Source: a virus
Direction: 5' to 3' (one strand)
Length of the DNA stretch: 48,915 nucleotides
IMG/VR virus record: IMGVR_UViG_3300050500_000499
Shown here: piece by piece, positions 1,012 through 43,305 of the stretch
How positions within the stretch are numbered: position 1 is the first letter of the stretch
Layout of the letters: every line of letters begins with the position of its first letter
Program-made: the position numbers and the translations under genes
Notes under the pieces: model-generated
Told to the model about the DNA's origin: nothing
The model's database searches: none
Seen by the model: only the letters and a program-made list of their open reading frames with translations

Positions 1012-1971
1012 TCATGGCGCGCTCGACGTGGCGCTCGCATGGTATGAGTGACCGAGCTTGGCCACTGCGTAGGGCTCGGTCACGGGGAGGCCTTCGAGGG
1101 TGCGCCACCGGACCCAGAACTCCGCAAGAAACATCTTGACCATGTACCGCTTGGCAGCGTTGTTAATGCGACCGGGCGTCCAGAGGCGGCTGACGTCCTC
1201 CCCGGCCTTGCGGCGTTTCTTCCAGTCGTTGGTGCTGCAGCGCTCGCGGGCAGGATCGGTCTCGAGGCGGTTCTTGTAGTCATCGTATACGGCGCGCCAG
1301 GGTGAGGCCTTCCGCATGAACCCGCCGGTGAGGACTCCCATCAGTTTGGACTTGAGAAATGGGTTGTAGGTGACGCTGTCGCGGAGTGCGGTGTCGCCAG
1401 CGGCAGTGGTGTACTCGCGCTGGACGAGGTGTTCCTTGCGGCGGGACCGACCGCTGCCCCCGGCCACATCCAGCCCCGCGTACTTCCAGAAGCTAGAAAT
1501 GTGCCGGGCCTTGTGGGGGTTGAAGTAGGTGATGAGGACTCCGGCCATAGCTGGGCCGATGCCGTAGACCTGGGAGAGGTAAGTATCGTAGATGGGGATG
1601 CCCTCTAGAAGAAGGAGGAGCTGTTGAAACTGGACGCGTTCCTGGCGCTCAATTTGGAAGAACTGATTCGTTAGGACTAGCTCAGAGTAGTCGGAGATCA
1701 GCTCGTCGCCGGTGAAGCCCTCCCGTTCGGGGAGGGTGCGGTTCCGTGCCACGCCCTCTGTGAGTGTTCGATAGGAGGTACGGATGCGGTCAATGATCTT
1801 CTCGGCCTCCTCTTCGGCGGCCTCGGATTGCGGGTCGGGCTTGATGAGGCCTAGTTTGGCGCGGAAGTTTGCGCACAGGCGCAAACCGGCCTGCATTCGA
1901 AGCATCTGGAGATCGTAGGCCCCGCTGACCATGCAGCGGAGGGCGGTGATCTGTGAGTCTCGGTCAGTCAT
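1012..1971 (-). CDS. IS110-family Tnp-domain (Transposase_20, HhH)-like protein without a DEDD/RuvC-like domain, 319 aa.
   Basis: VYGIGPAMAGVLITYF, SSFWKYAGLDVAGGSGRSRRK and YNPFLKSKLMGV match the IS110 C-terminal signature (IPGIGxxTAxxLLAEIG, AAYAGLxPxxxxSG, GNxxLRxxL). The N-terminal 130 aa are helical and lack any GIDVAK-type DEDD start. Start has a GGGAG RBS. Confidence 0.6.
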   Translation of the reverse strand: MTDRDSQITALRCMVSGAYDLQMLRMQAGLRLCANFRAKLGLIKPDPQSEAAEEEAEKIIDRIRTSYRTLTEGVARNRTLPEREGFTGDELISDYSELVLTNQFFQIERQERVQFQQLLLLLEGIPIYDTYLSQVYGIGPAMAGVLITYFNPHKARHISSFWKYAGLDVAGGSGRSRRKEHLVQREYTTAAGDTALRDSVTYNPFLKSKLMGVLTGGFMRKASPWRAVYDDYKNRLETDPARERCSTNDWKKRRKAGEDVSRLWTPGRINNAAKRYMVKMFLAEFWVRWRTLEGLPVTEPYAVAKLGHSYHASATSSAP

Positions 1972-25763: not shown

Positions 25764-26563
25764 TGGCTGATCAGAATTTTCTTGACCCGCGCGACGAGCA
25801 AATGATGCGGCAGGACACTGGTCCAGGGCTAGCGGATCGCTGGAGGGGTTGGCTGGCCAGTCCGCAGAATCAAGCCTTTCTGATTCAGGCGGGCACCGCG
25901 ATGCTCCAGCCGAGGCCAGAGGGTCAAACGGCCATAGGGCAAATTGCGGGCTCACTTGGAGCGGGGGGTGAGGCCGCTGCTCGTGTTTCGAAGCAGGAGG
26001 AGGAAGCGACGGAGGCTGCGTCGAGGCAGGCGTATCGGGCGTCGAATGCTGATGCCAATCAGCAAAAAGGGGAAGCGGCACTCTTGCGCGGGCAAGCGGC
26101 GCTAGATCGAGCCGCCACGCTTGCGGAAGGAGGCGGTCGGCCTATGACCGAGGCGCAGCGCCTTCAGTTTCGGTTGAAGGCGCAGACGAAATATAGGGAT
26201 TGGATCGCGAAGCCAGAGGACCCGATTGGTGAGCCTCTGTTGAAAATTCTGGGGGCGAAAACAAAGGTGGATGTAGAGCAAAATCCGGAGTTGCGGCGGC
26301 GGGCCCTCGAATGGTTTTACGAGGGCGCCCCCGATGCAGCGCCGGCGTCGCGCGCCGTTCCGCAGCAGAACCAAACGCCAGTTCCAGGCAACAGCCGGAT
26401 CATGACTCCGAGCGAAGGAGTGGCGAGCGGTGCTTATAATGCGACGGAAGTGTCGAATGCCGTTGAGGCGATTTATGCGGGCAAACGGAGTCGCGAAAGC
26501 ATTCTGCAGCAATATGAGCAAAGGACGGGGCGGCCACGCTCTGACGTACTAGGACAGCTATAA
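25760..26563 (+). CDS. Internal virion protein candidate, 267 aa.
   Basis: GGGAGGGG RBS. Helical and A/Q/E/R-rich. Lies immediately upstream of the giant protein. Confidence 0.5.
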   Translation: MMADQNFLDPRDEQMMRQDTGPGLADRWRGWLASPQNQAFLIQAGTAMLQPRPEGQTAIGQIAGSLGAGGEAAARVSKQEEEATEAASRQAYRASNADANQQKGEAALLRGQAALDRAATLAEGGGRPMTEAQRLQFRLKAQTKYRDWIAKPEDPIGEPLLKILGAKTKVDVEQNPELRRRALEWFYEGAPDAAPASRAVPQQNQTPVPGNSRIMTPSEGVASGAYNATEVSNAVEAIYAGKRSRESILQQYEQRTGRPRSDVLGQL

Positions 26564-29500
26564 TGGCGAATCCGTATTTGGAGCCGGAGGCAGAGGAACA
26601 ACCTGCGCCCCCACAGCCGTCGGCGGATCGTGGTCCGAGCCCGATGAATCCCTATCTGTATCAGGCAGAGGGGAATGCAAATCCGTATATGGATGCTCCG
26701 CAGCCGCAGCCGTCGCAAATGGAAAATGCGGCGTTGAGTCCGAGTGCGGGCCCTGGCTATTTCGATGTGGCTGTTGATTCGGCGATGCGCGGCGGCGCTC
26801 GCGGAATGGAAAAGGTTTCCAATTTCTATGAAGGCATTAAGCGGAAGTTGAGTGGCGAAACCTTTTTTCATGTCCCGGAGCAGCCGGAGGCGACGGCGGC
26901 CAACCCTGAGGTCGAGGGCTTGCTCAACACGCCGATGCAACAGGGGTGGACTAGTCCGAAGTGGTGGGCCGCTCAGGCCGTCAATGCGATTAGTGAAAGT
27001 TGGCCGGAAATGGTTGCGGCGGGGCTCGGCGGTCGGGTCGGCGGCATGCCTGGAATGGTTACGGGGATGTCGGCGGGGAGTGGATTGTTGTCGCTGATTC
27101 CAGCGTTCAAGGAGGCGAAGGCGAAAGGCTTGAGTGACGACGACGCAGTAACGGAGGCGGCGAAGGTTGCAGCGGTCAATGGTGGCACGGCGATGCTCGC
27201 AGGAGTTGCGGGCATGCAAGGCTTCACCGGGGCGCTGATGCACGGAAAGACCGTCGAAGCGCTCAAGGTCCCGATCAAGGAAGCCTTGGTCCAGCTCGGT
27301 CTGGTCCAGCCGACGATTGCGGTGGCCGGCTCTATTGCAAGGGGAATTGCGCAAGGCAAAGAGCTTCAGGATATCAGTCCGTGGGACGTGGCACACGAGG
27401 CGTCGCTCGGCGTTTTGACCCAAGCGCCGTTCACTGGTTATCAGATTCTGGCTCTGTCGAGGCCCCGCCGTGCGCCGAGCCCGCCGGCCGGAGTCGAGCA
27501 TTTGCAGGGGGCGACGGAGGGTGTGCCGGCGCGCGAAATTCCGGTGCAGGATATTCCTGCTGGTGAGAGGATGCCAGCGCCGGAGGGATGGATTGCGGAG
27601 CAAAATACACCGCAGGTTCAAGCGCCGACGTTTTATTCGGCGATCAAGAAATTTGTCGAGGAAAAGGGACAAAATACTGCCACGGGAGAGCAGTGGAGCG
27701 GCACGATTCGGAATGCGCCGGGGATCAAGCTCGAGGAATTCGAAGCGCTGGGGCTTCCAGCATTTTTAGGAGACGAAAAAGGGAGGATTTCGAAAGCGGA
27801 TTTGCTAGCGCATATTGAGGAAAATCAAATCCAGTTGCTGGAAAAAGAATTGACTTCTGGTCCGCCGCTGAAGTGGACACAAACAGAATCTGGATTGCTG
27901 GTGGCCGATGCTCCAGAGGGGACGCGCTACGTTATTGGTCCGCGTCCGGACGGTACGTATACCGTTGCAAATTCGCGCGGCGGTCGCGTTCAGGCTCGGG
28001 ACATAGCTTCGGCCCAAACGCTGGCACAGCAAATTGAAGCACAACGAAGATCTGGACAGGGAGGCGAAACTCAATATGGGGCTTATACGCTGCCGGGACC
28101 AAAGGAGAAGTATGGCGAACTCTTATTCAAGCTGCCAGACGAGGTGGCGAAGCTGGAGGATCAATATAATAGGCTCAATGAAGAATTCATGGCGGCCAGA
28201 GCCGACAATCCACTTTCGACAAGGACGCAGGAGCTTGCGAAGCAATTGCAAGAGGTGGCGGGAAGGTATGCGCAAGAGCGTGAGGGCAAGTTCAAGGCGC
28301 CGCACTTTGGCGAGGAGGGCCGCAATCTGCTGGCTCATGCAAGGTATACTAGCCGCCTCGACAGAGATGGCAAGAATACGCTATTCGTGGAGGAGATTCA
28401 AAGTGATTGGCATCAGAGGGGGAGAAAGCAGGGATACACTGATCCAGAGAAAGTAGCGCAATTAGATCAAGTACGAGAACGGATAAATCAGCTTAGGGAC
28501 AGCACTGATGGCATACTGAATAGCCTTGACGATTTGGGATTCGACAGTACTAGTCGGGCGCGTGCAGCTCTCGTGCGGGAGGGACTAGAGTCTTGGGATA
28601 TTCCTCCAGAATATAGACCCAAGTTACAAGAGTATGTTGATACGCGGCGAGAGTTCCTTCGCCTGCATGATGAGGTTGGTACGGCTGTTGCGGATGCGCC
28701 CTTTAAAAGCTCTTGGGACGAGTTGATGTTCAAGCGCCTCTTGCGCTATGCTGCCGACAATGGATATGAGAGGATTTCGTGGACGAATGGAGATCAGCAA
28801 ATTGCAAGGTATCCCGGCTTGGGCGAAGTCCAAGCGCGGGGCATGGTCGATTTTTATGGCAGCTCGAATAAGATTGGCGCATTGGACAAGATTGCCCAAA
28901 AGTGGGCGAAGAAGCTCGGCATGGATGGAGGCGAGACGACGTTCGATGTGGGGCCACAGGCGATTCGAGCAGACGAGCCTATGGCGAATACGATTGCTGG
29001 TCAAAGACAGCTTTTGAATGCGACCAGGAATCGATATATCAATGTCTCTCCGGAGGCGGGGAGCCGCATCAAGCGGGGGCTGCCGCTATTCGAGCAGAAG
29101 GTTGCTGCACAGGTCATCGATCCGGGTGTGGCGATGGGGGAGGTACCGGGAATCCGCGCGGCGGCGCGCCAGGCAATCAAGGTTTTGGAAAACGTTCGAA
29201 AGGCGATGGGACTCGAAGGGACAGATTTGCGCAAAATCGAGTTGTATCATGATCCAAACGACACGAGTCGAGGCTGGTATCATCCGGACGAGAAAATCAT
29301 TCGCATAAATCTGGCGAATGCACAATCGCCGGAGCAGATTTATTCGACGCTCGCCCACGAATTCGGACATCATTTGATGTACGACGTTTTTGATAAATTG
29401 CCGCCGGAGAAAAAAGTTGCAATTTTCGACGATTACGACAAGTTCGTAATGCGGATGAAAACTGATCCGAGTGCCGCGAACGCCCTCGTGCGACGTAGAG

Positions 29501-32500
29501 CTCCGATTTCTGAGTTCAATGAGCCAAGCTCGACTAGTTGGAGGAATTTGCGTTGGATCGACATGCCACAAGCGGAGCGCGAGTATTGGTTCGGTTTTAA
29601 TGAGTGGTTTGCGGATAACGTGGCGCGGTGGGCGACCACAGACGCCAAGCCTATGTCTGTTGTCGATAAGTTTTTCTCGTCGCTGGGCCGCGTTATCCGG
29701 GATGTGGTGCGCGCCGTTCGACAGGCGGTGACCGGGGAATCGTTCGAAGCGGCACCCGCAATGCGCGCATGGCTCGACAGTTTCATACAGCAGAATGGAG
29801 TGTTTGGACCGGAGGTGGCCAGCACCATGCACTTGCAAGGATTGCTGAAAAATGCTCGTGCGTTGCAAACCGAAGGGACGGAGGCACCGGCTACCCCGCA
29901 AATGGGGAGCACGGGAGGTGGAAGGGCGATCCTCGACGGCGCGGGCGCTGGGGCCGAAGGTCGAGCCTTTGCGGCGCACGGGGATCGGATGAATTGGTTT
30001 TATAAGGTTGCACTTTCGCTTCAGCAGATTGCGAAGCGGAACGAGCACATTTTGCCGCTTCAGCTTTATCGGGAGTTGACCGATTTGCTGAACCTCGAAA
30101 CCATAACGGCATTGAATCAAGCTGATATTAATGTCATGCGGCCGTGGAAGCACTTGAGCCGCGAGGAAGGCGAGGCCCTCGGCCGATTCATCGACGATTA
30201 TGCAAATGGTCGGTTCATGGACCCGAAGGAATTGGCGAAGGACGGACTGCGGAGGCCCACCGATACTGAGCTGCGAGCTCTTATCAAGAAACATGGATTG
30301 ACGGAAAGGGGGGCGAAGCAATTTGGCGCTATTATTACTGATTTGCGAAATGATTTGATGCGATACAAGGACATATTGATGGCGGAAACTAGTCGCATCC
30401 GCGATCCGATCGAACAAGCGCAAGCGATGGAGCGCGTCGAGGCGCAGATTCGTGCAATGGACAGCATTCCGTTCATGCCCTTTGCTCGATTTGGCGATTA
30501 CACCGCCACGACGTATACAGTTGATGGAAAGGTGAAGGAATTCTATCGGTTTGAAACGCAAAAGGCGAGAGATCGCGCCGTTGAGCAAATGCAGGCCGCC
30601 GCGGCGCAGGGCGAACAGGTGAAATCTGGGTTCCTGCACAAGGATGTGCATCCGTTGCTCGGGATGCCCCCAGGCATGCTCGATCGGATTGCAGACAAAT
30701 TGAATTTGAGTCAAAATATGAGGGATTCGATCGACCAGCTCAAGTTCGAATATGCGCCCGCGCAAAGCTTCAGGCATCATTTCCAGCAAAAGGATTTCAC
30801 GCCGGGCTATTCACAAGACTGGCAGCGCGCCTACGCGCAATACAAGTTTCATGGGTCGCATTATTTCGCTCGGATCAAATATGCCGATCAAATGCGAGAT
30901 ATGATTGCGGAAATGACCAATGAACGCTTGACCCGGAACGACCACACGAAGCTCGACCAGATTCGGAATTTGATGACAGAGCACTTGGACACCGTGCTGA
31001 ATCCGAAGGCGGATTATGCTCGGTTGAAGGGAGCGATGTTCCACTTCCACATGGGATTCAGAGTCTCCACCGCCGCGATCAATTTGACTCAGGTCCCGCT
31101 GGTGGCGTGGCCGAATTTGAGCAGTCATTTCGGCGATTTTAAGTCGGCCGCCGCACTGATTCGAGCAACGGGAAAATCGAACACTCTGTTCCGCCGCATG
31201 ACCACGTCGCATATGGCAGCGGACGAATTGCGGATTCTGCAACAGGGCGCCGACGACGGATTGACTGCTCCAAAACAAGCGTATGAACTTGGGGCGTTGA
31301 GCGAAGGGCGGAATCTGTTCAAGGGGCTTGGAAAGGGAATTGAGCGGACCTGGCAGGAAGGCGCGGAGCTTTCCGCTAAAATGTTCGAAATGAGTGAGCA
31401 ATGGGGGCGGACGACGACCCTGCTCGGTGCCTATGATTTGGCGAAAAAGGATCTCGGTTCGAAGTTCGTCCAGAACAGCATTCAGGCGAACCAGTTGCTT
31501 TATCTGCGACTCCGGGAAAAGAATTGGAGTCACGAGGAAGCCGCAGCATACACCGCCGCCACGGTCGCAGTCAAGGAATCCATGTTCGAATATGGGTATC
31601 ATGCGCGGCCGAAAATGTTTCAAGGCGGACTTGGCGCCGTTTTGCTTTTTAAGAGCTTCCAGCAGAACGTGCTGTTCAATTTGTGGAATAATAAGGGAAG
31701 CTTTGTCCGGCAAATGCTATTGCTCGGCGGCGCCGCCGGCCTGGCCGGACTGCCGTTTTCTGAAGACATTAGCTCGATCATGAAAATGCTGAGCAAGCGA
31801 TTTTTGTCCAGTGATTTCGACCTCGAGGACGAAGTGCGGAAGCAAGTTCGAGCATTGAGCAATGGAGCCATTTCGCCTGATCTGGTGATGCACGGCGTTG
31901 GACGTTATGCGTTCGGCGTCCCGCATGTTTTGGATTTGATGGGCTCGACGCTCGGTTTAAGGGACAAAAATGAATACGCTGGAACGTTCCCGGAGCCGCG
32001 GGGCGTTTCGATTAGCCGCAGCATTGGGATGGGACAAGTTTTGCCGTTCGACGTAGGTAGAGCCTTCTCGCCCTCGAAGAGCCCGGAGCGGAATGAATTG
32101 CAGCAAATCCAAAGGGCGAGCGGTGCAGCGTTCGGAATAGGATTCTCGCTTTACAATTTCGCGACGAGCAATCCATTCACAGAGCCAGACAGGAAGAAAT
32201 GGGAGCAGATAATGCCTGCCGCAATTCGCGACGTGAGCACGGCGTGGCGCTTTGCAGAGGAAGGCGGCGAAAGGAATCGACGCGGGAACCAGATCATCAA
32301 GTTCGACCCTTATGATACGATGGGGGCCGCAGAGATTTTAGCAAGGGGTCTTGGCTTCCAGCCGACCAGGCTCGTAGCCCGACAGGAAAACATTGCTGCG
32401 AAAGCGGAGGCGGTGGAGTATTGGGAAATCAGGCGCCAGTTGCTCATGAGGCAATATTGGAGCGCCGTGAAGGACAACAATCCGGAGCAGATCGAGTCGG

Positions 32501-32730
32501 TGATCGAAGCCGTAAAAGCGTTCAATCGGGGCCTGCCTGAAGAAGCAAAAGCGAAAGCAATAACAGGAACGAACTTGCGACAATCAATAGTGAGAAGAGC
32601 ACAAGATAGAGCTCGACAAGAATCGGGGCTGCCAACGGGGCGGAGAGACACAACGCTTTATCAAAGCATCGACGCGCTTTATCCCGAAGGCGCGCCTCCC
32701 GGCTTGCAAGACATTCGACGAGTGCAGTGA
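26563..32730 (+). CDS. Giant polyvalent internal-virion or ejection protein, 2055 aa.
   Basis: HEFGHH zincin motif at 29356-29373. PFARFG (PLxRFG-type motif) at 30478-30495. LFVEEIQSDWHQRG box near 28390. Gly-zipper hydrophobic segments near the N-terminus and around aa 1700. TAATG start overlap. Confidence 0.8.
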   Translation: MANPYLEPEAEEQPAPPQPSADRGPSPMNPYLYQAEGNANPYMDAPQPQPSQMENAALSPSAGPGYFDVAVDSAMRGGARGMEKVSNFYEGIKRKLSGETFFHVPEQPEATAANPEVEGLLNTPMQQGWTSPKWWAAQAVNAISESWPEMVAAGLGGRVGGMPGMVTGMSAGSGLLSLIPAFKEAKAKGLSDDDAVTEAAKVAAVNGGTAMLAGVAGMQGFTGALMHGKTVEALKVPIKEALVQLGLVQPTIAVAGSIARGIAQGKELQDISPWDVAHEASLGVLTQAPFTGYQILALSRPRRAPSPPAGVEHLQGATEGVPAREIPVQDIPAGERMPAPEGWIAEQNTPQVQAPTFYSAIKKFVEEKGQNTATGEQWSGTIRNAPGIKLEEFEALGLPAFLGDEKGRISKADLLAHIEENQIQLLEKELTSGPPLKWTQTESGLLVADAPEGTRYVIGPRPDGTYTVANSRGGRVQARDIASAQTLAQQIEAQRRSGQGGETQYGAYTLPGPKEKYGELLFKLPDEVAKLEDQYNRLNEEFMAARADNPLSTRTQELAKQLQEVAGRYAQEREGKFKAPHFGEEGRNLLAHARYTSRLDRDGKNTLFVEEIQSDWHQRGRKQGYTDPEKVAQLDQVRERINQLRDSTDGILNSLDDLGFDSTSRARAALVREGLESWDIPPEYRPKLQEYVDTRREFLRLHDEVGTAVADAPFKSSWDELMFKRLLRYAADNGYERISWTNGDQQIARYPGLGEVQARGMVDFYGSSNKIGALDKIAQKWAKKLGMDGGETTFDVGPQAIRADEPMANTIAGQRQLLNATRNRYINVSPEAGSRIKRGLPLFEQKVAAQVIDPGVAMGEVPGIRAAARQAIKVLENVRKAMGLEGTDLRKIELYHDPNDTSRGWYHPDEKIIRINLANAQSPEQIYSTLAHEFGHHLMYDVFDKLPPEKKVAIFDDYDKFVMRMKTDPSAANALVRRRAPISEFNEPSSTSWRNLRWIDMPQAEREYWFGFNEWFADNVARWATTDAKPMSVVDKFFSSLGRVIRDVVRAVRQAVTGESFEAAPAMRAWLDSFIQQNGVFGPEVASTMHLQGLLKNARALQTEGTEAPATPQMGSTGGGRAILDGAGAGAEGRAFAAHGDRMNWFYKVALSLQQIAKRNEHILPLQLYRELTDLLNLETITALNQADINVMRPWKHLSREEGEALGRFIDDYANGRFMDPKELAKDGLRRPTDTELRALIKKHGLTERGAKQFGAIITDLRNDLMRYKDILMAETSRIRDPIEQAQAMERVEAQIRAMDSIPFMPFARFGDYTATTYTVDGKVKEFYRFETQKARDRAVEQMQAAAAQGEQVKSGFLHKDVHPLLGMPPGMLDRIADKLNLSQNMRDSIDQLKFEYAPAQSFRHHFQQKDFTPGYSQDWQRAYAQYKFHGSHYFARIKYADQMRDMIAEMTNERLTRNDHTKLDQIRNLMTEHLDTVLNPKADYARLKGAMFHFHMGFRVSTAAINLTQVPLVAWPNLSSHFGDFKSAAALIRATGKSNTLFRRMTTSHMAADELRILQQGADDGLTAPKQAYELGALSEGRNLFKGLGKGIERTWQEGAELSAKMFEMSEQWGRTTTLLGAYDLAKKDLGSKFVQNSIQANQLLYLRLREKNWSHEEAAAYTAATVAVKESMFEYGYHARPKMFQGGLGAVLLFKSFQQNVLFNLWNNKGSFVRQMLLLGGAAGLAGLPFSEDISSIMKMLSKRFLSSDFDLEDEVRKQVRALSNGAISPDLVMHGVGRYAFGVPHVLDLMGSTLGLRDKNEYAGTFPEPRGVSISRSIGMGQVLPFDVGRAFSPSKSPERNELQQIQRASGAAFGIGFSLYNFATSNPFTEPDRKKWEQIMPAAIRDVSTAWRFAEEGGERNRRGNQIIKFDPYDTMGAAEILARGLGFQPTRLVARQENIAAKAEAVEYWEIRRQLLMRQYWSAVKDNNPEQIESVIEAVKAFNRGLPEEAKAKAITGTNLRQSIVRRAQDRARQESGLPTGRRDTTLYQSIDALYPEGAPPGLQDIRRVQ

Positions 32731-33047: not shown

Positions 33048-33078
33048 AGCCGCGCAAAGATCACCATTATTAGGAAGC

Positions 33079-33108
33079 TTGTGGCGAGTACAAGAGTGAG
33101 CGCCACAA
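33079..33108. terminator. Stem-loop in the convergent gap between the two blocks.
   Basis: ttgtggcg-N14-cgccacaa: a perfect 8-bp stem in the only intergenic space between the converging gene sets. Confidence 0.4.
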
Positions 33109-33122
33109 TTAGCTCCTCATAT

Positions 33123-33224
33123 TCAGAACCAAAGAGCGGGGATTTCATAATAGCGCTCATTCGATTCGACGATGTGGCTGAACTGGCCGTCGGGGACGGC
33201 TATGACAGGTACTGTTTCCTTCAT
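33123..33224 (-). CDS. Possible 33-aa terminal ORF of the leftward block.
   Basis: ATGA overlap with the stop of the helicase-like gene. Translation MKETVPVIAVPDGQFSHIVESNERYYEIPALWF. It is short, so uncertain. Confidence 0.35.
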   Translation of the reverse strand: MKETVPVIAVPDGQFSHIVESNERYYEIPALWF

Positions 33225-34456
33225 TGCAGGGGGTCTCCGGTTTGCTTTGATGCATTGAACAGGACGAAATCGGCGTCGCCCTGTTTTATCATAGTCAAAA
33301 GGTTGCCATGAACGGCAGCGCGAAGGGCTGCTTGGAATTCGACAAAGGACATAAAGTTCATCGAACGGGACCAAAGGTCTTTGACGCTCTGACCGCCGAT
33401 GTTGCGGACAAAGGTGACGATTTCATTGACATGGCGGGCTTCGTCCACCACGCCGATGGATTCGAAAACGCGGATCATGTCCTGTTCATTTGACGTTATA
33501 ATCTGTTCGGCTTCGACCAGGTCTTCGCGTTCGATGATGAGCTTGTCTCGTTTTGAAGCGGCAAGGACAAGAGCAAATTTATGTAAATGTGTTTGCTTCC
33601 GCGCAATGTAGCCTCCAAATCTGTCACTCGCAAGGTGTGGAGGTCGAGCGCTATGATCGTTGTGTCGAGTGTACCAATCACGGCCCCAGATTCGTGCATC
33701 AGTTGACAGGATATAGGGTCCTGCAAGTTGAGATATCGCTGTAAGATCGTCAGTAAGTGCTTTTTCGAGCTGTCGATATTGGTCATGGGGGATCACCTCG
33801 TCGGGATAGGGGACTAGTTGGCGTTTTTTGTCACTGTAGACAAAAACGATTCGACTTGTGAGGCCACCTCCAACCATTGCTTCGGGGAAATTGGCTCTGA
33901 GCCATGCTGGAGTTGTCGCAGCGATAAGGTTAAGCCAAGGATGGTCGACTTCAATATTTCCGCTGCTTTTTGTCTCATGACGAAATTTGTCTGCTTGTCC
34001 GTCCCACATTCGGATAAGAAACGATAGGAGCTGGTCGTCATCAGTCCGCAAAAATGTTCCAAGTTCTCCAATGCCGACCGTAAGGCACGACATCGGAATG
34101 CGGGCGAGTTGTCCATTGAGGTCGACATATTCGCAGTACTCCACAGCAGAGGAGAGCGCCTGAGCAAGAGCTTGCCAGGTCATAGATTCTGGGCCGAAGT
34201 GGATTCCGGGGACTTTTTCCAAAAGGCGTAAACCAACTCCCATTGTTGTCGACTTCTGCACCACACCAGCCGGAGCGACGAGAATGATGTAGAAATTCGG
34301 TGTCCACTGGAATTTGTGCATGTCCAGCCATACACGGCGTCGAAGCGCTCCCGCGAGCATTGACACTCCGGACCAAAAATGGAACTTGACTGGAGCTTCG
34401 GAGTCCTTTGCAAAGTCAACGTAAGCTTCCAACCAATTTTTAAAGATTCGAGCCAC
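33221..34456 (-). CDS. DUF3987/SF3-like helicase-type ATPase with a deviant P-loop, 411 aa.
   Basis: GTG start after GAGGAAG. ILVAPAGVVQKSTT sits where a Walker A is expected, with Gln replacing the Gly before the Lys. IGELGTFL and SRIVFVY resemble downstream NTPase strands. Confidence 0.5.
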   Translation of the reverse strand: MARIFKNWLEAYVDFAKDSEAPVKFHFWSGVSMLAGALRRRVWLDMHKFQWTPNFYIILVAPAGVVQKSTTMGVGLRLLEKVPGIHFGPESMTWQALAQALSSAVEYCEYVDLNGQLARIPMSCLTVGIGELGTFLRTDDDQLLSFLIRMWDGQADKFRHETKSSGNIEVDHPWLNLIAATTPAWLRANFPEAMVGGGLTSRIVFVYSDKKRQLVPYPDEVIPHDQYRQLEKALTDDLTAISQLAGPYILSTDARIWGRDWYTRHNDHSARPPHLASDRFGGYIARKQTHLHKFALVLAASKRDKLIIEREDLVEAEQIITSNEQDMIRVFESIGVVDEARHVNEIVTFVRNIGGQSVKDLWSRSMNFMSFVEFQAALRAAVHGNLLTMIKQGDADFVLFNASKQTGDPLQ

Positions 34457-34466
34457 TTTGGCTTCC

Positions 34467-34592
34467 TCATTTTAGGCGTGCCTTATGCTTTTCGATTACC
34501 CGTTCCAATTTGGAGCGGACTTGTGCATCGAGCTTTTCACCCTCAATGCCCAGGTGGCCAGTCATTTGCTCATGCAGTTCGAAGATGTTCAT
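34467..34592 (-). CDS. Small hypothetical protein, 41 aa.
   Basis: ATGA overlap with the stop of the PolA C-fragment. Translation MNIFELHEQMTGHLGIEGEKLDAQVRSKLERVIEKHKARLK. The longer track ORF would run into polA. Confidence 0.45.
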   Translation of the reverse strand: MNIFELHEQMTGHLGIEGEKLDAQVRSKLERVIEKHKARLK

Positions 34593-35335
34593 ATTGGAAC
34601 CTTTTGACAGTCGCCCCACGACACCGGGGAGGCCGATAAACCCCACGGGATGTGGAGTGGTTTGGGATAAGGAACAGGAACGGGAAGCGCCGCCCGGATT
34701 TGCGGAATGCAATCGGATCGATGGCTCGGGACCTGGAACACAATGCTGTCATGCACCTGGAGCAGGAGTTCGACCCAGGGGCAGCGCGATTTCAATTGGA
34801 GGGCTCCGCGGAAGCAGGTTTCCGCGACCGTTGATTGCGGGCCCCAGGCGAGCGCTTCAGGGAAAATTGAATCGATACGATCATAGAAGATGATCCGATA
34901 GCCGAAGGCATTTTGAATTGTCCGATTCGTCGCAAGGCTTCGTTCCACTCGCTGATGCCAGCCCTTAACGCCGGGGTGGAGTCCGAACCAGTAGGACTGA
35001 AAGCGACTCCAGAAATCCCGGCTATAGCCCAACGTGGATGCAAGTGTTGGAGGTTTTCCGCCATAGTGAGTACCGTGCACTCCACTCTTAAACTTCTGGC
35101 GGACGGCTTTACGCTCCGCCCCGATGAGCCTCGTGAACTGTGTGCCAAGCATATGCTCCGCGTTTTCACTATGAATGTCATAGCCCGTTAGAGCCGCGTT
35201 CAGGAGGAAATCGTCCTCCGCCTCGGCTGCAACAACGAGGGCATCAGCTCCAGCCAAGTCGGCGTCGAAGAGGATATAGCCGGGATCGGGGACGAAGATT
35301 TTCCTGATATTCGGAAGCTTGTATTCGGTTAGCAT
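34589..35335 (-). CDS. polA: Family A DNA polymerase C-terminal fragment with palm and fingers motifs A, B and C, 248 aa.
   Basis: IRKIFVPDPGYILFDADLAGADAL is motif A. RQKFKSGVHGTHYGG is motif B. LLQVHDSIVFQV is motif C. Confidence 0.85.
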   Translation of the reverse strand: MLTEYKLPNIRKIFVPDPGYILFDADLAGADALVVAAEAEDDFLLNAALTGYDIHSENAEHMLGTQFTRLIGAERKAVRQKFKSGVHGTHYGGKPPTLASTLGYSRDFWSRFQSYWFGLHPGVKGWHQRVERSLATNRTIQNAFGYRIIFYDRIDSIFPEALAWGPQSTVAETCFRGALQLKSRCPWVELLLQVHDSIVFQVPSHRSDCIPQIRAALPVPVPYPKPLHIPWGLSASPVSWGDCQKVPI

Positions 35336-35643
35336 CCGCTCGTCCTCGACAGGATATAGGCCCCGCGACCGTGGGAGATTTCGTAGTGAGCATTAACGGA
35401 GCGTAGCGTACTTCGCATTCGCGCAATGTAGCTCACTATGGATTCGATCTTGCATTCGCGGCCGAGCCGTTGCGCGAGCCAGGGGCCGGAACAGCCATTG
35501 CGGCCTGCAATATGGAGATGGATGAAAATCTCTGCCCGCTGGTGGCAGAAAATCATTACATCCTTCCAATAAACGATGGCGGGGCGGCCTCGGACCCAGA
35601 GCAAGGGAGGCTCGAGTCTAACGTCCTGTGGACCCAAATCCAC
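35329..35643 (-). CDS. Winged-helix (OmpR/PhoB Trans_reg_C-like) DNA-binding protein, start uncertain.
   Basis: AEIFIHLHIAGRNGCSGPWLAQRLG...IESIVSYIARMRSTLRSVNAHYEISHGRGAYIL fits the wHTH pattern. Candidate starts are GTG 35643, TTG 35637 or ATG 35556. The stop overlaps the PolA-C start (ATGCTAA). Confidence 0.5.
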   Translation of the reverse strand: MDLGPQDVRLEPPLLWVRGRPAIVYWKDVMIFCHQRAEIFIHLHIAGRNGCSGPWLAQRLGRECKIESIVSYIARMRSTLRSVNAHYEISHGRGAYILSRTSGC

Positions 35644-36073
35644 GGCCCCCACGATCAGTTCCTGGAAGGTGGGTGGCCTCCGCAACCTCGGGGGTCGCAG
35701 GCCGGGGAAGTAGGAGGAGTTGGGCGATACGGTCTTCGTGACGGACATGATAGAGGTCCCAGCCAGTGTTGCAGAGGAGGACGATGAGTTCACCAGTGTA
35801 ATCGGGGTCGATGACGCCGGGGGCATTGGCGACAAAAACGCCCTTCGCCGCCAGACCAGAGCGTGAGCAAACCAGGATGCAATGATTTGGAGGCGGAATG
35901 ACACAAATACCCGTTCGAACGGCGCAGGTCATTTGCGCGCCGATGCTTTTATGTGTTGAGCGCCCCGATTCTGTTTTTAGATAGGCGTGCACGTCGTAGC
36001 CGATCGAATTCGGAAGGGCGCGAATCGGCGGAAGGGCGTCGGCAGCAAAGCGAAAGTAGAGTAGACGATCCAT
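35618..36073 (-). CDS. dut: dUTP diphosphatase (trimeric dUTPase), 151 aa.
   Basis: PNSIGYDVHAY, GLAAKGVFV, GVIDPDYTGELIVLLCN, GDRIAQLLL and GFGSTGR are the canonical dUTPase motifs. The ATG lies 1 nt after the PolA-N stop. Confidence 0.9.
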   Translation of the reverse strand: MDRLLYFRFAADALPPIRALPNSIGYDVHAYLKTESGRSTHKSIGAQMTCAVRTGICVIPPPNHCILVCSRSGLAAKGVFVANAPGVIDPDYTGELIVLLCNTGWDLYHVRHEDRIAQLLLLPRPATPEVAEATHLPGTDRGGRGFGSTGR

Positions 36074-36074
36074 G

Positions 36075-37823
36075 TTAGTCTTCCTCTCCCATAGGAATGT
36101 TTTGCAGGTTCCCTCCGCGACCGAAGGCATTGCTGCTGCTGGACCAGCGGAAGGTTGAGGTGCCAGCAGTATTGAACATGCATTTCATGCGGCCATCCGG
36201 TTCGAGTTCAGCCTTGATGAAGGTATTATGGTAAATGCCAATGGACCTGCAATCGATCAAACAATCAAATATGCGGCTCAGTTCGGGATTTCTCGATTTC
36301 AGCTCTTGCAAGGCTTCGTAGTTGATGGTAGATTTTCCAGTTTTGCGGTTTGTTTGGCCTTTTAAGCCAAGAATTTCGTAGAACAAGGTCTTTTGTTGAT
36401 GTACGGATTCCCACCAATTCGATTTTGATGTTTTCAAAAAAGGCTTCAGCCAGGTTTGTGGGATAATCGACGACAACCAGGAATGTCGTTCCCCCAGGGC
36501 AGTGGATAGTTCGAAGGCGAGCCTGGCGCGTGCCTCGCGATTTATGCGAACGCCTTTTTGCATCATGGAGAGCGCCATGGAATTCTTTCGCTTTTCCCAT
36601 TCCCACAGCTCGCTCATGCCATGATCGCGAATCAGAGTACGAAGGGCGCTTGCGCATTCGAATGTCCTCAAACTGTCCTCAGCATTATAGCGCAGATTTT
36701 GTTCCCAGTCGATGGAATTGTTCCATTCCTTTAAGTCCTCCTTCCAATACCAGTGGTAGCGGCAATAGAGGGAAGAAAGATAATCCAGCCCCTTCGGTGT
36801 TCCAGGAAAGAGTAAGTGATGCGCCAGCATCGTATCAAAATCGAGTCTGGGGCAACGTCCCCAACTGGATTCGATGTATTGGAGATCGTATAGGTAATTC
36901 TGCCCCTCGATTTGAATGTTTGGATGCGAAAGGATGGCCACAATGCACTGGACAAGTTCGATTTCCTCCCGTTCACTCCAAAAGTTGCGCCAGATTTTGC
37001 CCTCGGGCCGCACGAACGGGATTACGAGGGCCGTCCCTGTTTCGTCGTAAGGTCCTGTAGCAAAGGACATACAGGTGATGAATCCGCGCGCCGTTTCGAT
37101 GTCGTGGGACAGGCGTAGACCGTTTCCACGGTCAAGCTGCCCTTTCCACAAGCCCAGCAGTTCCCGAGTTTCGGCAAAGCTTCCAGGTGCGAGAACCTTT
37201 GGACCAGTAAGTGGACGCCACATGTTTTGCAGTGCACGAGGAACGCGAGTTCTAAGGTCATGGACGGTCACCGCTCTTTGATACCAAGCTCGCATTATCG
37301 CGGCCGGATGCAGAATCGGGAGCACCTTTAGCTGGAGTCCAGGGATGGTCGCCGACTCCAGCATGGAGCCACGCCAAGAAGTTATCCCGCCAGGGACACG
37401 GACGGTCGCACCATTTCCAGTTGACGTTGATGATATTGAGCAGCAGTCGGCCGTTGCCCACATAGCATAGTTGCCAGCGGCAATGACAAGTCGGGGTTTT
37501 ACCGCTCGAATCTGGGCTTCCAAACGCTGAATTTCCGATACAGCGAAATTCGTTGGACATAAGCCACGATAGCGGGGCGAGGTTGTCGAAGAATCGTGGA
37601 AGAAATGCCATGCCTCATTGTCCTCCGGTTGAGCGTTGAACACATTTGTGCACAGGATCGAGTTGCGCGCGATCCCTGCCTCGGCCAGCATGCGATCCAG
37701 TTCGAGGCCGGCGCCCCCGACAAAGGGACGCTTTTGCACCGCCTCCTCGGAGCCCCAGCTTTCGCCGACGAGCATTATCGGGGCGTCGAGGGGGCCGCTG
37801 GTGCAGTCGAACAGGGAGGTCAC
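36075..37823 (-). CDS. polA: Family A DNA polymerase N-terminal fragment: UDG family-4-like domain, 3'-5' exonuclease and thumb, 582 aa.
   Basis: GESWGSEE...PFVGGAGLELD...ILHPAAIMR is UDG4-like. HDIETA, NYLYDLQY and YNAEDS are Exo I-III. The fragment ends ...FRWSSSSNAFGRGGNLQNIPMGEED, the box that precedes motif A. GTG start. Confidence 0.85.
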   Translation of the reverse strand: MTSLFDCTSGPLDAPIMLVGESWGSEEAVQKRPFVGGAGLELDRMLAEAGIARNSILCTNVFNAQPEDNEAWHFFHDSSTTSPRYRGLCPTNFAVSEIQRLEAQIRAVKPRLVIAAGNYAMWATADCCSISSTSTGNGATVRVPGGITSWRGSMLESATIPGLQLKVLPILHPAAIMRAWYQRAVTVHDLRTRVPRALQNMWRPLTGPKVLAPGSFAETRELLGLWKGQLDRGNGLRLSHDIETARGFITCMSFATGPYDETGTALVIPFVRPEGKIWRNFWSEREEIELVQCIVAILSHPNIQIEGQNYLYDLQYIESSWGRCPRLDFDTMLAHHLLFPGTPKGLDYLSSLYCRYHWYWKEDLKEWNNSIDWEQNLRYNAEDSLRTFECASALRTLIRDHGMSELWEWEKRKNSMALSMMQKGVRINREARARLAFELSTALGERHSWLSSIIPQTWLKPFLKTSKSNWWESVHQQKTLFYEILGLKGQTNRKTGKSTINYEALQELKSRNPELSRIFDCLIDCRSIGIYHNTFIKAELEPDGRMKCMFNTAGTSTFRWSSSSNAFGRGGNLQNIPMGEED

Positions 37824-38119
37824 TCGGCCTTGTCCTCGTTATGGCGCGCAATGAGTTCGCCGGGCCAGCCTGGCACGTCGACGAACCACTCGTTTTTGTC
37901 GATGACAAGGAAGGCTTCGACGGTGAGTTGCCAAGCACGATTGATGACGTCGTCGACTGGCATTTGCTGTCCGCTATTAAGGGGCGGATTCATGCCGATG
38001 CGGACCAGTTCGATGAACAGGTTGCCTTCCGCGGTGAGCCGAAAGCGTTCATTGAGCAGGACCTGGTGGCGCTGGACGGCGCCAGGATCGATAGTTACGA
38101 CTTCGGGTTTCGTTCGCAT
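37820..38119 (-). CDS. Hypothetical protein, 99 aa.
   Basis: GTGA overlap with the polA-N start. No motif recognised. Confidence 0.55.
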   Translation of the reverse strand: MRTKPEVVTIDPGAVQRHQVLLNERFRLTAEGNLFIELVRIGMNPPLNSGQQMPVDDVINRAWQLTVEAFLVIDKNEWFVDVPGWPGELIARHNEDKAE

Positions 38120-38176
38120 CAGATAAGTCCTTTGTCGTAGGCCTTTTCGGTTTCGTGGATCTTGCGAGCAGCAAAG

Positions 38177-39556
38177 TCAAAGAGCTTCGACTCCGACGTC
38201 GGTGGACTCCGGGGGCTGCGGTTGAGGCTGGTCGTCCTTTTGCGAGTTGACCAGGGCGAGATTGAAGGCTTTTTCGTCTTGCTCGATTCCTAGGGCCTTG
38301 CGGCGCAGCCGGCGAGCAGCAACAAGAGTGCTACCGCTACCGCAACAAGGGTCAAGAACTGTATCTCCACTAAGCGTCGAGCATGAGATAAGTTGTTCGA
38401 GGAGCGGGACTGGCTTTTCCGGTCCATACTCACGGTCAGCACGGCCCACGCGATTATGACGAAGGATATCGACAGGTGCATGATAGAGACCCTTATCGCC
38501 TTTGGTCGCGTACATGATCCATTCACAGGTGCGACGGAAGCCGGAGCGGCCCCAGGGGGCGAGCCCCTCACTATCCGACTTCACCCAGGTTATGGGAGTG
38601 CGGAAAACGTCCCAGCCTGCGCGCTGCGCCGCTTCCTTGAGCCACGTAAAGAGGTCGATATCGCAAAAGATAAACATATTTGCGCGTTGTCGAGTGACCC
38701 GGAAGCCTTCGCTAATAATGCATTGCAGCAGGCTTTTAGCTGTTGCAGGATCGTCGGTGTAGTTATGATGTTGGACAGTACGTGCACGAAAGCCTCCGCT
38801 GTCCGCTCCGATACCATATGGCGGGTCGGCAAGGATAAGATCGAATTGACCTTCATCGAGACTGGGCATGAGGTGAAGGAGATTGCCGCGGCGGACCTGA
38901 ATATCGGGCGCGGCGTCGAGTTGCGGCTGGCGTTTGATAAGTTCGGCTGCGAACGCTTTTTCCTCTTTGGCGTAGACGAGGTGGAGCGCCTCCGTTGCAT
39001 TGCGCGCCTTTTGGATCGCCGGATCATCGAGGTGTCTTGCTATGATGTTGGCTTCGCGAACGGCGACGCCGGCCCACCGCATTTGACCCTCGCTCGGATT
39101 CGAGGTCGCCTTTTGGGCCAGTTCGCGCCCCGTGTCGAGGCCGGTTTGCTGTGGATTTTCAGTTAAGCGCAATTGGTGGATTTCAGCAAGCGCAGAAATG
39201 CGGTCCTGCCAGGGCAGTTCCTCCCGCATGATATTCTCATGCAGTTCGACAGTTTTCAGATCACCGAACGACAGATTGTCATTCAGTTCTGTGACCGGGA
39301 CCTCGCCGGGGGTAATGATCTGTCGATTACAATGGAAAATGTGACCCGCGTTCCCGATGGCGTCAATGGCGCGAAGTCGACGTCCCCCAGCGACAAGAAC
39401 GAAATTTTCGCTGTCTCTGCGGCGGTGTACGACTGGAGGGTGATATAGCCCGTTTGTCGCGATGTCGGCAGCGAGATCTTGTACTGCACGGAGATCCATG
39501 GTTCGGCGCTGTCGGGAGTCGGGGACATCAAGCTCACTCCTTTTGATGATTCGCAT
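38177..39556 (-). CDS. ParB-like nuclease domain fused to an N6/N4 DNA methyltransferase, 459 aa.
   Basis: N-terminus SRQRR...LAADIATNGLYHPPVV...LVAGGRRLRA is ParB/Srx-like. DLILADPPYG is motif IV and it precedes LDPCCGSGST (motif I), giving a beta-class order. Confidence 0.85.
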   Translation of the reverse strand: MRIIKRSELDVPDSRQRRTMDLRAVQDLAADIATNGLYHPPVVHRRRDSENFVLVAGGRRLRAIDAIGNAGHIFHCNRQIITPGEVPVTELNDNLSFGDLKTVELHENIMREELPWQDRISALAEIHQLRLTENPQQTGLDTGRELAQKATSNPSEGQMRWAGVAVREANIIARHLDDPAIQKARNATEALHLVYAKEEKAFAAELIKRQPQLDAAPDIQVRRGNLLHLMPSLDEGQFDLILADPPYGIGADSGGFRARTVQHHNYTDDPATAKSLLQCIISEGFRVTRQRANMFIFCDIDLFTWLKEAAQRAGWDVFRTPITWVKSDSEGLAPWGRSGFRRTCEWIMYATKGDKGLYHAPVDILRHNRVGRADREYGPEKPVPLLEQLISCSTLSGDTVLDPCCGSGSTLVAARRLRRKALGIEQDEKAFNLALVNSQKDDQPQPQPPESTDVGVEAL

Positions 39557-41662: not shown

Positions 41663-42724
41663 CTAGGGAATTCTGGCAAGTTCCAAGGTAGGATTCGGTG
41701 GGATGGCGAGACCAAGACTGGCAATTTTCGCAATACTTGTAGAGGGCGAGGCGATCGAGGTCTCGGCGATCGGGTTTCGAGCGAGGGGATTCCATCGGGC
41801 AACCTTGTAGCTGGAGTTCCAGCGGTCCGGGTGGGGGCTCGTGCAGCGGTCCATGAAGGGGCAGTTGCCGTACATTGTGCAGGCTTCGCCGAGGTTCCAG
41901 TCGAAGTATTGCTCCTGCCAGGCGCGCGTGATGCGCCAGAGATCGCGGCGCAATTGTTCGTGCCAGCGCTCGATCAGGAATTGCGAGTAGGGTTTGATCG
42001 CCTCGACCTGGCGAATCTCCTTTTTAGTGATGATGATTCCGCGCACGACAACAGTCGAACAATTAATGCCCATTTGCTGAAGCGCCCAGCAGTAGCCGAG
42101 GAATTGAGATCGCAGATTCCATTTGTCGGACCAATTCGTTTCGAGGCGGCCCGCCGTTTTTTCGTCGCGGATGACGACTTGACGCGAGGCTCCATTTGTT
42201 AGTTCTCCGAGGAGGTCGAAGCGGCCGACATAAATCCAGGGCTCGCCAGTGACAGGATGAAGGGGGAAGTATTTCTCCTTATCCCCTATAACGTCAGCCC
42301 ACGGAGCGGCAGGCTCCAGGGGAATGGCGAAAGAGAATTCGACGGAGGTTTGCCCATCGAAGGAATAGGGTTGAACGTGGTCGGTGCGAGGGGGATATTT
42401 TTGGATGTAGGACTCGACGGCGGCCCACATATTTTCGCGGGTTTTTGCGGTGTCTTTTTTCGGTTCGAAATCATCCCACTCGTGAAAAAATCGTGCAAGA
42501 GCGCGGCCCGTCGCACTCGGGGTGTCGAGCCCGTCCTCGTAGGTTGCCCGATAAAAGGATTCGAGTGAAGCGGAAACGCAGCCGCCGGCATGGAGGTCGA
42601 TGCTGGTTTCGGCGGGCCGCAGGCCGAGGCAGAATTCGGTATGGAACTTTTGCAGACATGTTCGGGCACACGACATCATCGTGGAGTCCATGTAGTGCGG
42701 AAGCAGGGATTGAGTCTCGGTCAT
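41663..42724 (-). CDS. Cas4/RecB-like PD-(D/E)xK exonuclease with an Fe-S type Cys cluster, 353 aa.
   Basis: N-terminal Cys (MMSCARTC). GRFDLLGE, VVIRDEKTAG and RSQFLGYCWAL (QxxxY) motifs. C-terminal GEACTMYGNCPFMDRC. Confidence 0.75.
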   Translation of the reverse strand: MTETQSLLPHYMDSTMMSCARTCLQKFHTEFCLGLRPAETSIDLHAGGCVSASLESFYRATYEDGLDTPSATGRALARFFHEWDDFEPKKDTAKTRENMWAAVESYIQKYPPRTDHVQPYSFDGQTSVEFSFAIPLEPAAPWADVIGDKEKYFPLHPVTGEPWIYVGRFDLLGELTNGASRQVVIRDEKTAGRLETNWSDKWNLRSQFLGYCWALQQMGINCSTVVVRGIIITKKEIRQVEAIKPYSQFLIERWHEQLRRDLWRITRAWQEQYFDWNLGEACTMYGNCPFMDRCTSPHPDRWNSSYKVARWNPLARNPIAETSIASPSTSIAKIASLGLAIPPNPTLELARIP

Positions 42725-43305
42725 GCGGGGAGCCTTTCCAATTCGCGTTTCAGCGAGGTGAGCATGTCGGCGGGCTCTCCAGCGTTCTGGATGCTGATAA
42801 CTCTAACGTCGGGAGGCTTGACCCAATTGCCAAGGTCGCCAGTCCAAGAGCAGCCGGGGCGCTGGATTTGAATAATGAGAAGGCGGAAAACGCCCTCGTT
42901 TCGGATAAAGGGCTCGATGTCGCCGGGGGTGCGCAGATCGTCGAACAGGAAATGGCGATAGTACATTTCCTGTTCCTGTGTTGCGCGGTGGGCGAGCTGG
43001 CCGAAGATCGATTCGCCATGCAACAGGTGCATAAAGCGGCCGAACTCGACTATCCATTTGCGGTGGGAAACTTGGGTGCCGGGAATGAGGGATTTTTTCG
43101 TCTCACCATCAGCGAGATTCAAGCTCGATGGGGTGTATAGGTTGTCGGGGTAAAAGGTCGCGGTTAGCGCCATGCGGATAGGGTCGGCGAAGCTGAGTTT
43201 GCAAACCTCGTGATTTGCAATCAGGAGTTCGGCAAGAGTCGTCTTGCCGGAACCAGGAGGCGCGTTGAGGAAAATGAATTTGGGGAGGCTGAGGCTGTGG
43301 GTCAT
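42721..43305 (-). CDS. dNMP kinase-like P-loop kinase, 194 aa.
   Basis: FIFLNAPPGSGKTTLAELL followed by SFADPIR, as in phage deoxynucleoside monophosphate kinases. Confidence 0.6.
   Translation of the reverse strand: MTHSLSLPKFIFLNAPPGSGKTTLAELLIANHEVCKLSFADPIRMALTATFYPDNLYTPSSLNLADGETKKSLIPGTQVSHRKWIVEFGRFMHLLHGESIFGQLAHRATQEQEMYYRHFLFDDLRTPGDIEPFIRNEGVFRLLIIQIQRPGCSWTGDLGNWVKPPDVRVISIQNAGEPADMLTSLKRELERLPA

Follow-up and report, generated by a model that had tools for sequence, protein, structure and literature searches.

The replicative family A DNA polymerase encoded in IMG/VR virus record IMGVR_UViG_3300050500_000499 is very probably made as two separately translated polypeptides that assemble non-covalently, with the loop in which the gene is cut serving as a slot for accessory genes. 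The record is a virus stretch of 48,915 nt, hereafter called the window, and all coordinates are positions in this whole stretch. Between 34589 and 37823 on its minus strand lie four co-directional open reading frames (ORFs), packed tightly or overlapping, in the order polN, dUTPase, ORF3 and polC (Table 1). The polN and polC genes are separately started, conserved and selected, and together they encode a full Pol I-type enzyme with intact catalytic residues. A first-pass annotation of the sequence had proposed that the enzyme works as two polypeptides, a proposal supported by the recurrence of the cut among relatives, the intact catalytic residues, purifying selection and the start codons that the C-terminal halves possess on their own.

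The polN product ends in ...GGNLQNIPMGEED followed by TAA, its terminal residues being NLQNIPMGEED. A single base (36074) separates this stop codon from the ATG of the dUTPase gene, which stands behind the purine run GGAGAGGAAG. The start of ORF3 overlaps the end of the dUTPase gene by 26 nt, and the ORF3 stop codon overlaps the polC ATG (35335) by 7 nt in the sequence ATGCTAA. The polC product opens with MLTEYKLPNIRKIFVPDPGYILFDAD. The coordinates and the three junctions given in the first-pass annotation were reproduced base for base.

Alignment to solved structures showed that polC residues N9-I10-R11 correspond to R593-I594-R595 of Taq polymerase and to R688-I689-R690 of E. coli Pol I. The cut falls in the loop of E. 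coli Pol I residues 681-687 (at about 685/686), between motif 2 and the motif A strand; the E. coli numbering of the NLQNIP box was checked against the intron-site literature (PMC3428280). From NLQNIP to the R688 point there are 7 residues in E. coli and 10-25 in continuous members of the clade. The polN product ends 5 residues past NLQNIP, polC opens 7 residues ahead of LPNIRK, and these 5 + 7 residues align with the whole linker of the continuous homologues, confirming the breakpoint that had been placed at the NLQNIP/motif A linker. The loop that is cut is acidic, surface-exposed and variable in length, and the domain contents of the two products are exactly complementary, with the thumb, the exonuclease and a uracil-DNA glycosylase (UDG)-like domain on polN and motifs A, B and C on polC.

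The catalytic core resides in polC, which matches Pfam DNA_pol_A (3.2e-19) over profile positions 140-347, directly behind the positions covered by polN (33-135). Its catalytic residues are D26 in motif A, K83, H87 and Y91 in the fingers motif B, and H195-D196-S197 in motif C, and both Pfam and the Taq/Klenow alignment bear out the earlier assignment of these three motifs to the C-terminal fragment. An AlphaFold2 model of polC alone, computed with 49 homologues, reached a pLDDT of 96 and a pTM of 0.88, with the first 9 residues unstructured, and on superposition the predicted structure matches the fingers and palm regions of Pol I, Pol theta and Pol nu (TM scores of 0.70-0.79). Motifs A, B and C and the predicted fingers/palm fold mark polC as a family A polymerase. 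The thumb, palm and fingers do not lie on one polypeptide, a stop codon following NLQNIPMGEED and a new start preceding LPNIRK.

The larger product, polN, matches Pfam UDG (2.3e-19, aa 10-182), DNA_pol_A_exo1 (4.3e-09) and DNA_pol_A (1.9e-05, aa 472-580), and a PHROGs search agrees with the Pfam assignments at the locus. The best PDB matches of its N-terminal domain are family-4 UDGs (1ui0, 7.9e-09). This domain is without the N-terminal ~30 residues of Thermus UDG, including a Cys-bearing segment, and its GE, PF, N and HPA positions are mostly conserved, with GESWG in place of GEGPG. The exonuclease motifs Exo I (DxE), Exo II (Nx3D) and Exo III (Yx3D) are all present, and their six residues are invariant across 81 relatives. 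The Pfam and PDB 1ui0 matches agree with the earlier reading of the N-terminal fragment as a family-4-like UDG domain, an exonuclease and a thumb. With its N-terminal family-4 UDG-like domain the enzyme groups with the UDG-PolAs, uracil recognition being a predicted property. The first-pass annotation had pointed to the UDG-like domain and the dUTPase as two uracil-handling functions at the polymerase locus; both are present, but the UDG-like domain is shared by this polymerase clade at large and by published UDG-PolAs and is not particular to the locus.

The same cut recurs among relatives. Our sample comprised 80 IMG/VR loci and the closest phage records, and 81 polymerases could be scored at both halves (L-numbers denote related loci). 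The linker is continuous in 66 of the 81, with 0-75 nt between the boxes and usually reading NLQNIPKGG[DE]...LPN[IV]R, and in 15 of the 81 it is cut, always just past the acidic stretch, so that the search of related genomes suggested with the first-pass annotation did find the same interruption. In each of the 14 split loci examined, the C half opens with a start codon of its own (ATG in 12) that stands 1-13 codons ahead of LPNIRK, and most of these starts are preceded by a purine run resembling a Shine-Dalgarno (SD) sequence. The polymerase gene is uninterrupted (779-826 aa) in the closest phage records (Microcystis phage Mel-JY34, MW202489 and a Desulfofustis phage), which share the ParB-methylase ... 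polymerase ... DUF3987 neighbourhood. In the cultured Vibrio phage vB_VspS_VS-ABTNL-3 the polymerase cut is displaced by one alignment column from its position in the window (columns 614 and 615), with an unrelated 184-aa ORF between the halves. In a neighbour-joining tree, the window falls inside a clade of split forms and the other split forms are scattered among continuous ones. Fitch parsimony counted 7 state changes on this tree and 6-7 in all 100 bootstrap replicates; the cut appears to have arisen repeatedly, with at least six independent changes of state.

Protein searches extended this picture. An exhaustive search with polC against 1.84 billion representatives (50% identity) gave 5920 matches. 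Among the top 150, about 30 proteins stand alone and have their first residues aligned with residues 2-9 of polC. The best 120 polC matches in a collection of 5.8 billion proteins (51-91% identity) are all stand-alone proteins of 230-317 aa, many of them on contigs of 45-52 kb. All 10 genomic contexts of stand-alone homologues are variants of polN - dUTPase - small ORF(s) - polC - DUF3987, with DUF3310 ahead of the dUTPase in L090-L092 (3774-4037 in L090), two small ORFs after the dUTPase in L089, and two small ORFs without a dUTPase in L093. A scan of genome collections returned only contigs of metagenome-assembled genomes, in which the polymerase is continuous, and pointed to no reliable host.

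The slot between the halves holds a dUTPase with or without an ORF3-like gene in the window, L005, L006 and L011, an HAD-like putative phosphatase in L009 (7610-8098, 1.7e-3), a GcrA-like ORF in L008 (7970-8257, 2.7e-4), helix-turn-helix (HTH) proteins in L048 and L076 (HTH_3 at 6305-6889 of L076, 7.9e-7) and several small ORFs of no assigned family in other split lineages. L063 carries no cargo at all: a stop codon, 7 nt and an ATG. The nested dUTPase, in the operon polN-dUTPase-small ORF-polC, is conserved in the subclade of the window, and elsewhere the cargo varies. Because the linker cut is clade-wide and older than the lineage-variable cargo, and because it occurs without cargo in L063, the dUTPase/ORF3 pair probably did not cause the split.

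Retention of function was assessed by residue conservation in 16 split-flagged and 65 continuous forms, the split-flagged set including L052, which is continuous at the linker. The motif A Asp, the motif C His-Asp and the six exonuclease residues are identical in 16 of 16 split-flagged forms and in all scored continuous forms. Among the split-flagged forms the motif B Lys is K in 14 and R in 2, and the motif B Tyr is kept in 15 of the 16. Nei-Gojobori comparisons with L094, whose polC is 91% identical, support purifying selection on polN, dUTPase and ORF3 as judged from their sequences (Table 1); for polC, pN was 0.094 and pS was saturated. No second polymerase was found among the replication-module ORFs scanned.

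Table 1 Features of the polymerase locus and of other parts of the window; dN/dS values are rough estimates against L094
Feature	Coordinates	Strand	Description	dN/dS
polN	36075..37823	-	582 aa, GTG start; UDG-like domain, 3'-5' exonuclease, thumb, palm motifs 1/2	0.15
Family-4-like UDG domain of polN	37278..37796	-	aa 10-182; keeps GE..G, PF, N, HPA motifs	
3'-5' exonuclease region of polN	36633..37103	-	D241/E243, N309/D313, Y379/D383	
NLQNIP box	36093..36110	-	motif 2 (E. coli Pol I 675-680), five codons ahead of the polN stop	
dUTPase	35618..36073	-	151 aa, trimeric type; ATG at 36073, TAG end at 35618	0.18
ORF3	35329..35643	-	104 aa, GTG start at 35643, stop at 35329	0.23
Terminator-like hairpin	35529..35551	-	inside ORF3, between dUTPase and polC	
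polC	34589..35335	-	248 aa, C-terminal catalytic subunit; ATG start behind GAGGA	
Motif B of polC	35063..35101	-	fingers	
Motif C of polC	34745..34753	-	HDS	
99-aa ORF	37820..38119	-	stop overlaps the polN start; without family match	
ParB-N + N6/N4 DNA methyltransferase fusion	38177..39556	-	upstream; syntenic polymerase neighbour in relatives	
41-aa ORF	34467..34592	-	4-nt overlap with the polC stop; also called in independent assemblies	
DUF3987 primase/helicase-like protein	33221..34456	-	Pfam DUF3987 1.8e-13; phrog_14296 (DNA primase) 3.3e-73	0.06
319-aa ORF	1012..1971	-	phrog_4285 (transposase) 3.6e-30	
2055-aa ORF	26563..32730	+	largest ORF of the genome	
Deoxynucleoside monophosphate kinase	42721..43305	-	phrog_139 9.2e-23	

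Between the two halves, the dUTPase is a complete gene, as first annotated: its product matches Pfam dUTPase (8.4e-18) and phrog_135 (1.1e-29), and the five motifs of a trimeric dUTPase are readable in the translation (SIGYDV, SRSG, GVIDPDYTGE, DRIAQ and RGGRGFGSTGR). A dUTPase occupies the same slot in L005, L006, L011, L089-L092, L094 and L096-L098. ORF3 is a real, small conserved gene, with homologues at the same position in L094 (63% identity), L096, L097, L089 and L005, the last with its start codon at the same 26-nt overlap with the dUTPase stop. The first-pass annotation had called its product a winged-helix-turn-helix (wHTH) protein; the conserved ORF in the slot stood up, and the wHTH label is weakly supported. 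The sequence of the window ORF3 itself gave no Pfam, PHROGs or PDB (phmmer) match, ORF3 of the window and of L005 each returned only itself from the 5.8 billion proteins, and an exact look-up of a 107-aa call of ORF3 found no record. The label rests on the syntenic L005 homologue, which matches Trans_reg_C at 1.1e-5 with a score of 25.8, just under the 26.2-bit cut-off, and the DNA-binding domain of a response regulator (PDB 3q9v) at 0.014. The window and L005 members align marginally (z = 2.75, a score reached by 40 of 2000 shuffles), the top PDB matches of a five-member family profile are wHTH regulators at non-significant E values of 0.35-0.7, and a single-sequence AlphaFold2 model of the window ORF3 was unusable (pLDDT 40). 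An OmpR/PhoB-type winged helix is thus a tentative label for ORF3.

The GC content of the cassette (0.57-0.58) matches that of the genome (0.563), and so there is no sign of recent import. No meaningful repeats were found in the flanks of the cassette, and counts of promoters and terminators around the locus were at chance level. A terminator-like hairpin with a T-rich tail (TTTCTGCCACCAGCGGGCAGAGA TTTTCATCCA) lies inside ORF3, such sites being regionally at chance level. No thymidylate-synthase-like gene, which would hint at an SPO1-type hydroxymethyluracil (hmU) pathway, was found among the early-module ORFs scanned, and hence nothing points to a modified-base pathway. A deoxynucleoside monophosphate kinase is encoded in this early module together with the dUTPase and the UDG-type polymerase.

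Several further features of the clade's polymerases were observed. Position B3 of motif B (E. coli F762) is occupied by His in each of the 80 relatives (L001-L084) that have a residue in this column; the PolA classification paper gives only Phe, Tyr and Leu at B3. The position of the steric-gate Glu (E710) is Asp in 79 of 81 relatives, and in motif C HDS replaces HDE in 71 of the 75 relatives that have a residue at this place. The frame of L052 (IMGVR_UViG_3300009702_000057) is broken between the UDG-like domain and the exonuclease, with ...YLINPNLP on one side and VLQFLSKLP... on the other, which may reflect either another type of fission or an error in sequencing. The polymerases of L058, L060-L062, L067, L075 and L018, from three lineages, are ~1080-1100 aa long and carry an insert of ~295 aa right after the ..VHG of motif B. 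This insert has a Cys first (CVTAGHEVLTPEGW) and ends in ...VTGN, followed by S/T-NYGG, which gives it an intein-like look; a Pfam search of it gave no intein or endonuclease domain.

Because the same cut recurs in hundreds of related phages, the split is a working design and not damage. In the two-subunit enzyme, polN would contribute the UDG-like domain and the exonuclease for proofreading, together with the thumb and the TxxR...NLQNIP segment that contacts the primer; polC would contribute the fingers, which carry motif B, the palm strand bearing the motif A aspartate, and motif C. Since the catalytic residues of polC are thereby separated from the thumb and the primer-binding motifs, which polN carries, the two would associate non-covalently, rebuilding the palm. 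The genes are co-directional and translationally coupled by the 1-nt gap and the 26-nt and 7-nt overlaps; the polymerase halves and the dUTPase are therefore probably produced together from one transcript. This operon layout would help balanced synthesis of the two halves, and the dUTPase would keep dUTP low for a polymerase with a putative uracil-recognition domain. As for history, a small frameshift or stop in the tolerant variable loop, with re-initiation, could have produced the state seen in L063, and the new intergenic gap would then have become a co-expressed landing site for accessory genes; this frameshift-then-capture order is plausible.

A bolder proposal goes beyond this. The motif 2-motif A loop would be a selected fission-and-capture site and not a neutral accident, and the holoenzyme would be modular, consisting of a proofreading, uracil-sensing, DNA-gripping subunit and a minimal catalytic subunit. 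The nested dUTPase, kept in the slot throughout a large subclade, would be its physical or kinetic partner, the whole being a uracil-exclusion replicase whose parts are produced in a fixed ratio by a single coupled operon. We consider this rather improbable.

Several points weigh against the two-subunit enzyme. Binding of polN to polC and their joint polymerisation are predictions from sequence. The tree was built by neighbour joining only. L063 is one metagenomic contig, and its stop could be a sequencing frameshift. In addition, dS is near saturation, which makes the dN/dS values rough, yet none of them suggests decay. Finally, Rfam holds only curated intron families, and another splicing mechanism in the window is formally possible.

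Among the alternatives, it is unlikely that the two proteins are functional but separate, with polC acting as a minimal polymerase and polN as an exonuclease/UDG-type repair factor. All three catalytic motifs are on polC, which is predicted to fold compactly alone, and exonuclease and polymerase are distinct genes in some T7-like cyanophages. By Pol I homology, however, the thumb and TxxR/NLQNIP belong to polN, and so polC alone would miss most of the duplex contacts; moreover, polN and polC are always adjacent and coupled.

A self-splicing intron (group I, group II or another type) would make the 739 bp between the halves, with their two ORFs, a removable segment whose splicing restores a continuous mRNA. 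Introns are well known from phage polA genes: HNH-bearing group I introns occur at sites 674 (SPO1, SP82, Bastille and Pf-WMP3), 676 (phiL7) and 881 (PhiI/W31) (PMC3428280), the first two about 10 codons upstream of the cut described here. The Pf-WMP3 intron opens with a stop codon, and the exon ends in the window would give a plausible linker length. In both cases the PNLQNIP region is interrupted, within ~10 codons, by ORF-bearing DNA. Unlike these introns, the interruption in the window matches no ribozyme model, holds no HNH endonuclease, has separate starts and lies in the variable linker and not in the box. Rfam gave no match at E<=10 in 34000-38500 and none at the gathering score in 13 other split loci. 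Same-strand coding sequence makes up about 96% of the insert, with coupled or overlapping starts, and no homing endonuclease domain (HNH, GIY-YIG or LAGLIDADG) was found in the cargo ORFs tested. In each split relative the C half starts from a codon of its own, in most cases preceded by an SD-like purine run, and the box-to-box gaps of 40-265 nt in L063, L007, L056, L019 and L050 are too short for a ribozyme plus an ORF. The absence of an Rfam match and the start codons of the C halves agree with the first-pass annotation in disfavouring a simple intron, which we regard as very unlikely.

Inteins had likewise been excluded at first pass, and split intein halves are ruled out here: they would need ~100 aa for the N-intein and ~35 aa for the C-intein, and beyond the boxes there are only the 5 + 7 residues that align with the linker. 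We also rejected genes in pieces made by homing endonucleases, as the cargo (dUTPase, Trans_reg_C-like, HTH_3, HAD-like, GcrA-like, DUF3310 and others) includes no nuclease domain.

Disruption by an insertion is the default expectation for an interrupted ORF, and the phage might use the host polymerase while its own gene decays as pseudogene pieces, an alternative that the first-pass annotation had raised. It is strongly contradicted by dN/dS values well below 1 for both halves (0.15-0.23 for polN, dUTPase and ORF3), by catalytic residues that are invariant in the split forms, and by a two-gene layout kept by hundreds of diverged lineages and by a cultured lytic Vibrio phage, leaving it highly improbable. 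An artefact of assembly or sequencing hiding a continuous gene, conceivable for a metagenomic contig, has a negligible probability, since identical ENA, JGI (two samples) and Logan assemblies and the 127-bp terminal overlap refute it and the inserted genes are intact and conserved in diverged relatives.

The assemblies in question (ENA ERZ27257649, JGI 3300006196, JGI 3300009147 and Logan SRR5689928) are independent and 100% identical over an 8.7-kb region, which answers the earlier concern about mis-assembly, and at least 21 contigs encode precisely this polC protein. This identity across four projects (window 33000-39000) suggests a very recent common source, for example a widespread clonal host/prophage or a shared inoculum. 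An exact 127-bp direct repeat at 1-127 and 48789-48915 is the signature of a circular or closed assembly, and the window is therefore a complete closed phage genome of ~48.8 kb. Terminase and SU10-type portal genes are present, as is a replication module, and the DUF3987 protein is a conserved downstream neighbour of the polymerase locus. The 319-aa transposase-like ORF is unusual in an otherwise lytic-looking genome. The 2055-aa ORF has no Pfam family on record, and its counterparts in relatives, of 2002-2384 aa, adjoin the replication module.

Other replication enzymes are also encoded in pieces. The B-family polymerase gp43A/gp43B of some T4-related phages and NrdA of Aeromonas phage Aeh1 are essential enzymes made in two pieces that reassemble, and the inserts between their genes are, or derive from, homing endonucleases. 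The window resembles these cases in that a replication enzyme is split with DNA between the halves; the polymerase family differs. In fractured genes, split inteins flank an intervening endonuclease (Dassa et al. 2009, PMC2677866); there too a free-standing same-strand ORF parts two halves, whereas the window has neither intein halves nor an endonuclease.

Among family A enzymes, T7-like cyanophages (S-SBP1/S-TIP37-like) show fission between the exonuclease and the polymerase domain, which was called the first PolA case (Czernecki et al. 2023, PMC10201439; also PMC12695635); its authors inferred that the new termini are exposed to solvent and that the halves remain associated (PMC10201439). 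As in those phages, a family A polymerase comes from two adjacent genes after fission. Unlike in them, the cut in the window lies inside the polymerase domain (at DNA_pol_A ~135-140), after the thumb and motif 2, so that the thumb and the fingers/palm core are on different chains, and there is cargo in the gap and more than one apparent origin. UDG-PolA fusions are known from N4-like cluster 17, SPO1, SP-10 and SP-15, and in a Caldanaerobius prophage dUTP-processing genes adjoin the UDG-PolA (PMC10201439). The window enzyme shares with these the N-terminal family-4 UDG-like domain fused to the exonuclease (and polymerase), but its clade is distinct, with His at B3 and an HDS motif C and no close match among the phage records, and its dUTPase lies inside the polymerase locus and not beside it. 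The OM43 phages MEP401 and MEP402 have a split DNA polymerase with a small ORF, for which an intron was weighed against fission (PMC10580990); they did not appear among the relatives of the window polymerase. The literature searched, of which coverage was incomplete, holds no description of the motif 2-motif A cut, its recurrence or the nested dUTPase. Splits of family A enzymes between exonuclease and polymerase are already published, and what is added here is a recurrent fission within the polymerase domain, a cargo slot and a conserved nested dUTPase.

Taken together, a Pol I-type enzyme tolerates a natural cut that separates a DNA-gripping half, with thumb and exonuclease, from a catalytic core of 248 aa, and evolution has repeated it. 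The cut offers a ready split site for engineered or conditionally assembled polymerases, and a natural system for asking how a palm assembles from two chains. Virome surveys and annotation that use PolA as a marker, for example through a motif B position, may class such halves as truncated genes or pseudogenes. The slot itself shows in compact form how a fission can open a protected site where accessory genes land and are co-expressed, in this case a dUTPase next to a polymerase with a predicted uracil-recognition domain.

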